DNA of 64,000 bases from Escherichia phage phiWec186: sequence record LC739535.1; one strand, 5' to 3'. Made by a program: the position numbers and the translations under genes. The first letter of the stretch is position 1; every line of letters starts with the position of its first letter. The notes under the pieces are model-generated. The model saw only the letters and a program-made list of their open reading frames with translations. It was not told the origin of the DNA and ran no database searches. Below are positions 41,161 to 41,473 of the stretch, in pieces.

Positions 41161-41473
41161 CCTACATCTTTACTATACAACATTTTACTATTGCTTGTCA
41201 ATAGTTTTATTGGGGTGGGACAGTGACGAGTATCCCGTTGGGTGACTAATCCTACGTTCGGAATGTGTGGCTTCCTTCATGTTGCACGCAACATGGTTCC
41301 GCGTTAAACACGTCGATGGAAAGATCCGCTTCTCTTTTGCTTCCATCCAACCCTACTCCGGTCAAGTTTCGGGTAACTCTTTTTGTGATCAACACAATAC
41401 TAAGAACACTGTCTTTCGAGCAGACCTTGTGCACAGGATACGACGATCAATCACAGTGCTCTTAATGTTGTGT

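Follow-up and report, generated by a model that had tools for sequence, protein, structure and literature searches.

The tRNA array of Escherichia phage phiWec186 includes a spacer of 313 bp without a tRNA gene. We analyzed this spacer, at positions 41161-41473 of the window (the whole stretch of 64,000 nucleotides from sequence record LC739535.1), and found that it holds a strongly conserved hairpin, element A. A is a member of an undescribed family of putative phage hairpin RNAs with a stem of ~21 bp, two invariant internal-loop strands and a palindromic apical loop. We consider it fairly probable that the spacer belongs to the tRNA operon as a transcribed non-coding segment, in which A would be a processed RNA that dimerizes by its loop, followed on the tRNA strand by a second element, B, and by a promoter. 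An earlier sequence-only reading of the window had flagged the spacer for a perfect 8-bp palindrome. The flag was worthwhile, but the palindrome is the least informative part of the spacer and the interest lies in element A; the real signals, the hairpin at 41392-41473 and the promoter at 41172-41201, had both been overlooked.

Boundaries and content of the spacer

Ten tRNA genes, all on the minus strand, are located at 40506-42563, with concordant results from ARAGORN and Rfam. As the array is on the minus strand, the whole spacer is read on that strand. tRNA-Gly ends at 41160 and tRNA-Thr starts at 41474, and the gap is therefore exactly 41161-41473, the tRNA-free 313 bp that had been proposed. 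The encoded CCA end of tRNA-Thr directly adjoins the first base of hairpin A.

With the tRNA software and Rfam scans that the sequence-only reading had suggested as checks, neither a standard tRNA nor an Rfam family was found in the spacer. ARAGORN detected no tRNA over 41161-41473, and Rfam, run on the spacer alone even at E<=10, gave no tRNA and no convincing family match; the best noise match (ZEB2_AS1_2, 12.3 bits) fell on the promoter. At the gathering threshold, only tRNAs were matched by Rfam in four A-carrying loci, and rnk_pseudo with 14.1 bits in carrier contig L041 is likewise Rfam noise. Element A is not a tRNA, not a YrlA RNA and not a member of any family in Rfam 15. The open reading frames (ORFs) of 52, 60 and 66 aa in the spacer, already doubted in the sequence-only reading, are not conserved: each has 1-4 stops or frameshifts in almost every one of 13 relatives, and no frame remains open across them. 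The spacer reads as non-coding, with three predicted modules in the order A, B and promoter on the tRNA strand. The boundaries and the parts of A are as follows.

41474-41548, minus strand: tRNA-Thr(UGU), upstream boundary of the spacer (ARAGORN; Rfam tRNA, 46.6 bits)
41087-41160, minus strand: tRNA-Gly(UCC), downstream boundary of the spacer (ARAGORN, Rfam)
41392-41473, minus strand: element A, predicted 82-nt hairpin RNA (R1 model, folding energy, covariation)
41440-41452, minus strand: 5' internal-loop block GAUUGAUCGUCGU, invariant in all members except the plasmid type (GGUUAAUCGUCGU)
41413-41424, minus strand: 3' internal-loop block UCUGCUCGAAAG, near-invariant, with Y at one position; GACUGGUCGAAAG in the plasmid type
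41425-41438, minus strand: apical hairpin UCCU-GUGCACA-AGG, with a 3-bp stem and a 7-nt loop
41429-41434, minus strand: self-complementary loop hexamer GUGCAC, the proposed site of kissing-loop dimerization
41377-41391, minus strand: A-rich single-stranded linker UGAUCACAAAAAGAG, of different lengths among relatives in the alignment

Structure and conservation of element A

The stem of A comprises about 21 bp, formed by a 5' arm at 41473-41453 and a 3' arm at 41412-41392, and includes two G·U pairs and one C·A mismatch. The minimum free energy of the hairpin is -30.4 kcal/mol, with z = -4.0 on the minus strand versus -2.1 on the plus strand. The fold of the whole spacer barely beats shuffled sequences (z = -2.0 minus, -0.5 plus), and the folding signal is therefore local to A.

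The family was described by a covariance model, R1, built from 23 distinct seed sequences including the window copy, and was defined by a stem of ~21-23 bp, the internal loops GAUUGAUCGUCGU and GUCUGYUCGAAG, and a 3-bp apical hairpin with a 7-nt loop. R1 matched 41387-41473 with 86.4 bits (E 2e-20) on the minus strand and 21.2 bits on the plus strand, a match that is by construction because the window sequence is in the seed; contigs outside the seed scored 72-108 bits. It identified one copy in the window and none elsewhere in the genome; there is one copy of A per genome.

The proportion of invariant columns was calculated for consecutive blocks from 13 Phapecoctavirus sequences, and an alignment of 14 distinct spacers was extended to phages phi1_175008 and Tr1. 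The blocks, all on the minus strand, compare with the two flanking tRNA genes as follows.

41473-41389, minus strand: block of element A, 96% invariant columns
41388-41313, minus strand: A-rich linker and 5' part of B, 72%
41312-41263, minus strand: replaceable middle of B, including the palindrome, 10%
41262-41216, minus strand: 3' part of B, 91%
41215-41161, minus strand: promoter region, 67%
41474-41548, minus strand: tRNA-Thr, for comparison, 83%
41087-41160, minus strand: tRNA-Gly, for comparison, 78%

Element A is thus more conserved than the tRNA genes on either side of it (96% versus 83% for Thr and 78% for Gly). This would be hard to understand if the spacer consisted of former tRNA genes in functionless decay, a reading that we regard as very improbable. 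The array does contain degenerate tRNA-like genes, its relatives gain and lose neighboring tRNAs, and B is located where other carriers of A have tRNA-like domains. However, both A and the 3' part of B are better conserved than functional tRNAs, A has undergone compensatory changes, and there is not even a weak match to a tRNA model. The same scans give no support to tRNAs with unusual T-loops in this spacer, which had been offered as one explanation; a weak echo of that idea may be seen in the position of B, which in this phage appears to occupy the place of the tRNA, pseudo-tRNA or tRNA-like domain that follows A in the lambdoid and plasmid relatives. Nor are mobile-element scars supported: the region is prone to insertions and deletions, but its conserved blocks are under purifying selection. 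Small stable RNAs, the remaining suggestion of that reading, are the favored option: A behaves as a covarying, strand-specific RNA element of conserved structure.

Compensatory changes were examined in 32 distinct sequences. Canonical pairs filled 94.9% of the pair cells, compared with 86% in shuffles, and none of 500 shuffles reached the observed value; both sides had changed in 12 of the 26 pairs. When the partner was slid by 1-3 columns as a control, pairing went down to 33-51%. The 3-bp apical stem also covaries (CCU/AGG, CUU/AAG, CAU/AUG), with pair 39-49 being CG in 27 sequences, UA in four and AU in one. Pairing reached 94.8% when read on the tRNA strand versus 87.9% on the complement, and G·U occupied 58 cells compared with 7 for A·C. 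Since G·U cells far outnumber A·C cells, the structure belongs to the tRNA sense strand.

The apical loop follows the consensus G-N-G-C-N'-C-A. N/N' is U/A in Phapecoctavirus and the plasmid type, G/C in most lambdoid copies, and C/G in the Sashavirus type as well as in some lambdoid copies whose remaining sequence is almost that of the G/C copies. Over the 32 sequences, this pair (42-45) was GC in 17, CG in 7, UA in 5 and something else in 3, and a palindromic hexamer (GUGCAC, GGGCCC or GCGCGC) was present in 29. Two bases only 2 nt apart cannot pair with each other within one molecule, so the hexamer is most simply explained as pairing with its own counterpart in a second molecule, as in kissing-loop dimers. 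Hence the hexamer probably self-pairs through a kissing loop between two A molecules.

Distribution and neighbors of element A

The window maps to LC739534.1 90521-154520. Over its bases 40400-42900, the identity is 100% with phiWec179 and phiWec181 (Phapecoctavirus, Stephanstirmvirinae) and ~90% with phAPEC8 together with about 60 relatives. The 85-nt piece of A alone, used in BLAST, also matched temperate Klebsiella phages and a Sashavirus, and pattern scans that covered E. coli genomes as well as viral, metagenome and genome collections yielded many further copies. Altogether, A was found in ~70 Phapecoctavirus genomes, in 113 phage records overall and in 107 records of E. coli plasmids of ~110 kb, the latter also appearing as viral contigs of 56-114 kb; we take these plasmids to be SSU5-like phage-plasmids. 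The metagenome scan gave 58 matches, about 20 of which were true copies; the remainder were GC-rich chance matches, recognizable by their lack of the flanking stem. A core-pattern scan of species-representative genomes returned two matches with long gaps in unrelated metagenome-assembled genomes, presumably by chance, and as there were no others, A is not in the species-representative genomes.

In Phapecoctavirus, the CCA of tRNA-Thr is followed immediately by A. In the plasmids A lies within a tRNA array, 3' of tRNA-Thr and of a second hairpin with the same stem. In lambdoid phages of Klebsiella and E. coli, it lies in the interval from the Q antiterminator (accompanied by tRNAs or not) to the holin gene, with a terminator-like site on either side. 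In every case seen where tRNA genes are present, A is on the tRNA strand. The flush boundary directly 3' of the tRNA-Thr CCA was observed in the window and in loci L041 and L003, and in L011 and similar contigs position +1 of tRNA-Arg(UCU) comes directly after the last paired base of A.

These settings bear on the idea that A works as DNA, as a single-stranded hairpin or a cruciform that would serve as a recombination, nicking or cassette-boundary site in the transfer of tRNA genes among phages, or that its palindrome is the site of a dimeric protein. A does travel with differing tRNA genes in unrelated phages, insertion hot spots are nearby, and the center of the loop is a palindrome also in DNA. 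On the other hand, A always shares the orientation of the tRNA genes, its ends coincide with RNA-processing boundaries, and its mismatches show a strong G·U bias in the transcribed sense (58 versus 7). Its stem varies while its interior is invariant, which is the reverse of transposon ends, and no recombinase is common to the contexts. We therefore give this explanation very little credence.

RefSeq has nothing annotated at the E. coli copies of A except an adjacent 'pseudogenic tRNA-Gly'. In the full-text literature searched, we found no description of the core sequences of A, nor of a non-coding RNA of phAPEC8 or Phapecoctavirus. M3 RNA of the lambdoid phage phi80, a hairpin substrate of RNase P, was considered and rejected as a relative; in the phi80 record it is an oop homologue between cII and a replication gene, and R1 detected nothing on phi80 at E<=0.001.

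Weaker R1 matches (23-44 bits) revealed hairpins that have the stem ACAYAACAGGUAAGAGCAUU...GUGCUCUUWYCGUUGUG in common with A, whereas their apical domains are unrelated. They are arranged in tandem with A in the plasmids, in Sashavirus and in some lambdoid contigs, and phiWec188 has one extra between tRNA-Thr and A. We noted such hairpins at L041 2852-2947, L027 4463-4550, L009 2311-2401 and L107 4691-4775, and further ones at L090 1341-1431, L063 2574-2658 and L003 2763-2853. This pattern suggests a modular design of stem plus cargo.

Downstream of A, the lambdoid phages and the plasmids carry a genuine tRNA, a pseudo-tRNA or else a tRNA-like domain. The last has a 7-bp acceptor (UUGUGGU/ACCACAA), a D-like arm (GCGCA-GGCUGA-UGCGC) and a T-like arm (GCCGG-AGAUCAGCA-CCGGC), with a hypervariable insert of 30-90 nt in place of the anticodon arm and often a C-CCA end; the acceptor, D-like and T-like helices all covary. 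Examples are L021 7893-8040, L041 3067-3212 and L042 3080-3194, among many more loci, and one version is called a 'pseudogenic tRNA-Gly' by PGAP. The 5' acceptor strand of this unit doubles as the outermost 3' strand of the A stem, and the two pairings therefore compete.

A might also be imagined as the Y-RNA-like partner of a Ro-type protein, with the stem binding the protein and the apical module acting as effector. Parallels in architecture are a bulged conserved stem, apical domains that can be exchanged, paralogues in tandem, and neighbors that are tRNAs or resemble them. In addition, phage phi1_175008 encodes a DUF7788 protein (L008 4511-5173) with weak similarity to the Ro60 vWA domain beside its tRNA array. 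However, tblastn with this Ro-like protein found none in the whole phiWec181 genome or at other A loci, the YrlA model does not match A, and the tRNA-like module of Y RNAs is inside the stem, whereas here the tRNA-like units are beside the hairpin. The sole YrlA match in the array, 21.7 bits against a gathering score of 69, falls on tRNA-Ile/tRNA-Pro outside the spacer. To our knowledge, E. coli is without Rsr. A Y-RNA-like role of A appears highly improbable to us. As a separate observation, the phi1_175008 protein is annotated as 'RNA-binding protein' and has homologues in ~690 phage records, those of mycobacteriophages being annotated as 'Ro-like RNA binding protein'.

Proposed processing and dimerization of element A

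For the transcription, excision, dimerization and partner of A, we infer the following course. A would be transcribed together with the upstream tRNAs from the predicted promoter at 42214-42185. It may then be freed as a discrete small RNA by the 3' cut after the CCA of the preceding tRNA and by RNase P at +1 of the downstream tRNA or tRNA-like unit; because the ends of A are flush with tRNA ends, the enzymes that excise the tRNAs would also release A. Two A molecules would pair loop to loop through the palindromic hexamer into a symmetric dimer, and the dimer might display its invariant internal loops to a protein or RNA partner that is conserved among enterobacteria. In a bolder and rather doubtful extension, A would found a new class of small phage RNAs that spread horizontally with tRNA cassettes between unrelated enterobacterial phages and phage-like plasmids, are excised by the tRNA machinery, form kissing-loop homodimers whose loops diversify while keeping self-specificity, and offer their invariant internal loops to a conserved host factor. 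If this were true, the A dimer might, for example, neutralize a tRNA-directed defense or tune tRNA maturation, and A would be a small counterpart of the self-assembling ROOL and GOLLD RNAs.

Several points weigh against a processed, dimerizing RNA and against the accompanying modules. The alignment behind the counts was fitted to the model, although an independent MAFFT alignment gave the same inner-stem pattern, and the sequences fall in about five clades with few independent events. Three of the 32 sequences have non-palindromic hexamers (GUGCCC, GGGCAC, UGGCCC), all of them one-step intermediates. Four of the six loop positions are fixed (G-N-G-C-N'-C), so palindromy hangs on one covarying pair of positions. 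Downstream of A in this phage there is no intrinsic terminator or evident 3' end, and no transcriptome of any A-carrying phage was found in the literature. Element B has an ordinary folding energy (z = -0.4), only 4 of the 24 pairs of its consensus fold show double changes, and its middle segment is swapped wholesale among relatives.

A simpler role for A is punctuation of processing only, in which RNase III or RNase E would cut the long stem and thereby part the tRNAs from adjoining transcript, or the stem would insulate the folding of the tRNAs, and A would have no separate existence as an RNA. The stem is about two helical turns long, its ends are flush with tRNA ends, the same stem occurs with unrelated apical domains, and other spacers of the array (40989-41086 and 41873-41994) are long closed hairpins as well. 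For this purpose, however, 25 invariant internal-loop nucleotides and a loop that keeps its palindrome in 4-5 unrelated phage groups would be superfluous, and A is conserved beyond the tRNAs that it supposedly serves. We hold this role to be unlikely, though it deserves to be kept in mind.

Alternatively, A could be a cis-acting transcription element, such as a boxA/nut or put antiterminator or a pause site, that would help RNA polymerase to traverse the long, untranslated and highly structured array. The boxA motif is UGCUCUUUA in rrn operons and CGCUCUUA in lambda, and the block UGCUCUUW, the best conserved of the 3' arm across the hairpin types (41392-41412; L021 ~7880-7900), is boxA-like. 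The array is ~2.4 kb of untranslated RNA, and in lambdoid carriers A is part of the late leader, flanked by two terminator-like sites. NusB/NusE bind single-stranded boxA, but here the boxA-like block is fully paired in a stem of about -30 kcal/mol. Moreover, the window copy departs from the motif (UGUUCUUAG) and the palindromic loop is left unexplained. A boxA scan of the window gave more than 100 weak matches per strand and was uninformative. We judge this role quite improbable, and continue to favor a processed, loop-dimerizing RNA.

Element B and the internal promoter

Between the linker of A and the promoter lies element B. Its predicted features and the promoter are as follows.

41216-41376, minus strand: element B, non-coding, 4-5 predicted hairpins, specific to Stephanstirmvirinae and common to phi1_175008 and Tr1
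41315-41348, minus strand: hairpin H1, GGAUGGAA...UUUCCAUC, apical motif AAGCGG, with compensatory changes of AA/UU to GG/CC and of A-U to U-A
41278-41295, minus strand: hairpin H2, the palindrome CAUGUUGC-GU-GCAACAUG, with counterparts in relatives
41241-41261, minus strand: invariant block CCGAACGUAGG and hairpin H4 with the 7-nt loop YUAGUCA, stem varying as GGG/CCC, GAGA/UCUC and GGA/UCC
41217-41236, minus strand: hairpin H3, GGGAUA-CUCGUCAC-UGUCCC, near-invariant including Klebsiella and Citrobacter phages
41201-41172, minus strand: predicted sigma-70 promoter TTGACA-18-TATAGT, agreeing with the consensus at 11 of 12 positions

The palindrome that had drawn attention to the spacer, CATGTTGC-AC-GCAACATG on the strand given in the record, is indeed a perfect 8-bp inverted repeat, but its position is 41278-41295 and not 41276-41293, and realistically it would fold into 7 bp with a 4-nt loop. 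The 64-kb window holds 14 perfect 8-bp hairpins versus 8 +/- 3 in shuffles; the palindrome by itself is therefore not beyond chance, and whatever significance it may have would come only from the comparison with relatives. There, its segment is the least conserved part of the spacer, with 10% invariant columns. Counterparts of H2 are GUGUUG-CAAG-CGACAC in phiWec188/EF1-1 and CACGUUG-GAAG-CGACGUG in Klebsiella phage phi1_175008, which gives two compensatory pairs, and phages of the phAPEC8 type have an unrelated AU-rich hairpin in its place.

B and the tRNA-like domain downstream of A in other carriers have only a 5' UUGUGNUGA motif and a 3' hairpin plus tail in common, and the closing helix of B is degenerate and not maintained in the alignment. 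B is not tied to the promoter, as genes are inserted between the two in Citrobacter phage Tr1 and Klebsiella phage ZCKP1. The inserts at this junction (L007 2031-2372 in ZCKP1, L010 2152-2478 in Tr1) carry a gene for a HigA/XRE-like antitoxin and an unknown ORF, and in phage nepoznato an HNH endonuclease gene is found between tRNA-Pro and tRNA-Gly (L051 675-1193).

The -10 hexamer of the promoter ends 11 nt upstream of tRNA-Gly, and both hexamers show little or no variation among 14 Phapecoctavirus sequences and the Klebsiella and Citrobacter phages. We conclude that this predicted promoter would restart transcription for tRNA-Gly and the genes downstream. No minus-strand site resembling an intrinsic terminator was found in 41202-41473, including the interval between B and the promoter. 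Predicted promoters of equal quality are present on the minus strand at 42214-42185 and 42803-42775, and with three promoters the array would consist of at least three transcription units. The strong internal one at 42214-42185 is upstream of a tRNA-like gene at 42176. The internal promoter and the overlooked tRNA-like genes correct the view of the array as one operon of ten tRNAs.

Other features of the array

The shorter spacers that had also been listed as unexplained do exist, but the other spacers of the array are not all empty: 41549-41631 and 42088-42176 are tRNA-like, 41639-41767 contains an ORF and 41873-41994 is a long closed hairpin. The sequence at 42088-42176 (minus strand) resembles a class-II tRNA with a long variable arm; the tRNA-Sec model scores 37 bits, below its gathering score of 47, and the counterpart in phiWec188 is annotated as tRNA-Ser. 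Two further tRNA-like genes on the minus strand had gone unnoticed. That at 41549-41631, unannotated and overlooked by ARAGORN and Rfam, has a 7-bp acceptor (GGACUUG/CGAGUCC) and a T arm (GCAGG-UAUCGAAU-CCUGC), with aberrant D and anticodon regions. The other, at 40585-40662, has a canonical T arm (GCUGG-UUCGAAU-CCAGC) and acceptor pairs, with degenerate D and anticodon arms.

Single long closed hairpins fill the minus strand of the Gln-Gly spacer at 40989-41086 (z = -5.7) and of the Tyr-Ser spacer at 41873-41994 (z = -3.9), and long hairpins between tRNAs seem to be a general trait of the array. Paralogy among the array spacers was rejected, as R1 gives no second copy of A in the window or the rest of the genome; the sequence that the spacers have in common is limited to promoter hexamers and 8-11-mers. 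The ORF at 41639-41767 (minus strand) encodes 42 aa and is placed 3' of a GGAGG motif; phiWec179 and phiWec188 have it in their annotation as a hypothetical protein. It stands where phAPEC8 and most relatives have tRNA-Asn. Upstream of the first tRNA-Met, a leader of ~200 nt (42564-42775, minus strand) is closed by a 10-bp helix, GUGGUAACAG/CUGUUACCAC; it begins at a strong predicted sigma-70 promoter and opens with ACGCUUUAUCAA, which bears a weak likeness to boxA. Outside the window, a stretch of ~1.5 kb within the dense early-gene region of LC739534.1 (37080-38626, L131) is free of annotated features.

Comparison with known systems

Phage tRNA arrays are usually annotated as tRNAs and empty spacers, and here the RNA predicted in a spacer is better conserved than the tRNAs themselves. 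The carriers of A include virulent myoviruses and temperate lambdoid phages as well as large plasmids, of E. coli, Klebsiella and Salmonella, and A has no name in databases or annotation. Because some E. coli phages that carry it can be cultivated and prophages of model hosts have it too, the function of an RNA from a tRNA island can be tested directly.

Some likeness to A is found in other RNAs that accompany tRNAs. Species 1 and 2 of T4 are small stable non-tRNA RNAs that are co-transcribed with the phage tRNAs and matured by the tRNA-processing machinery; the likeness lies in the genomic setting only, and T4 is unrelated to the carriers of A. YrlA Y RNAs combine a conserved stem with a variable effector module, occur in tandem copies, mimic tRNA and are found in phage tRNA arrays. 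A likewise has a conserved stem with a variable module, tandem copies and tRNA mimicry nearby, but YrlA encloses its tRNA-like unit in the stem, whereas in the A family the unit is downstream. In MALAT1-mascRNA and the tRNA-miRNA units of murine herpesvirus 68 (MHV68), the end of a non-tRNA RNA is made by cleavage at an abutting tRNA or tRNA-like structure. A similarly abuts tRNA ends, although those systems are eukaryotic and herpesviral and the processing of A is put forward here as a prediction.

Other likenesses concern self-association. The hairpin loop of the human immunodeficiency virus type 1 (HIV-1) dimerization initiation site (DIS) has a self-complementary sequence of 6 nt, as does that of A, and in both the palindromy is kept through sequence change; GCGCGC and GUGCAC are natural DIS variants. 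The DIS differs in its 9-nt loop with flanking purines and in dimerizing a viral RNA genome for packaging, whereas A has a 7-nt loop in what would be a small transcript of a double-stranded DNA phage, and its dimer is predicted. The packaging RNA (pRNA) of the phi29 family is a small phage RNA that multimerizes by intermolecular loop-loop pairing of identical molecules (PMC4201828). pRNA and A are alike as small phage-encoded RNAs with intermolecular loop-loop pairing, which is predicted for A. In contrast to A, pRNA uses two different complementary loops and assembles into a ring at the packaging motor of small phages that infect Bacillus. It has no association with tRNAs and no similarity to A in sequence or structure.

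A parallel in habitat is offered by ROOL and GOLLD, RNAs of phages and prophages that are often located near tRNA islands and form homo-oligomers partly via covarying kissing loops, with the tRNA arrays of Mycobacterium being cited for GOLLD (PMC12286853). Their habitat in phage tRNA islands and the signs of self-association are common to A. ROOL and GOLLD are 500-800+ nt long with many pseudoknots and form a cage, whereas A has 82 nt, belongs to enterobacterial phages, is not matched by their Rfam models and is predicted to form a dimer at most. If A is indeed stable and self-pairing, it would be a short and tractable addition to the few natural self-associating RNAs, and it might provide a link to the unexplained siting of ROOL and GOLLD beside phage tRNA genes.

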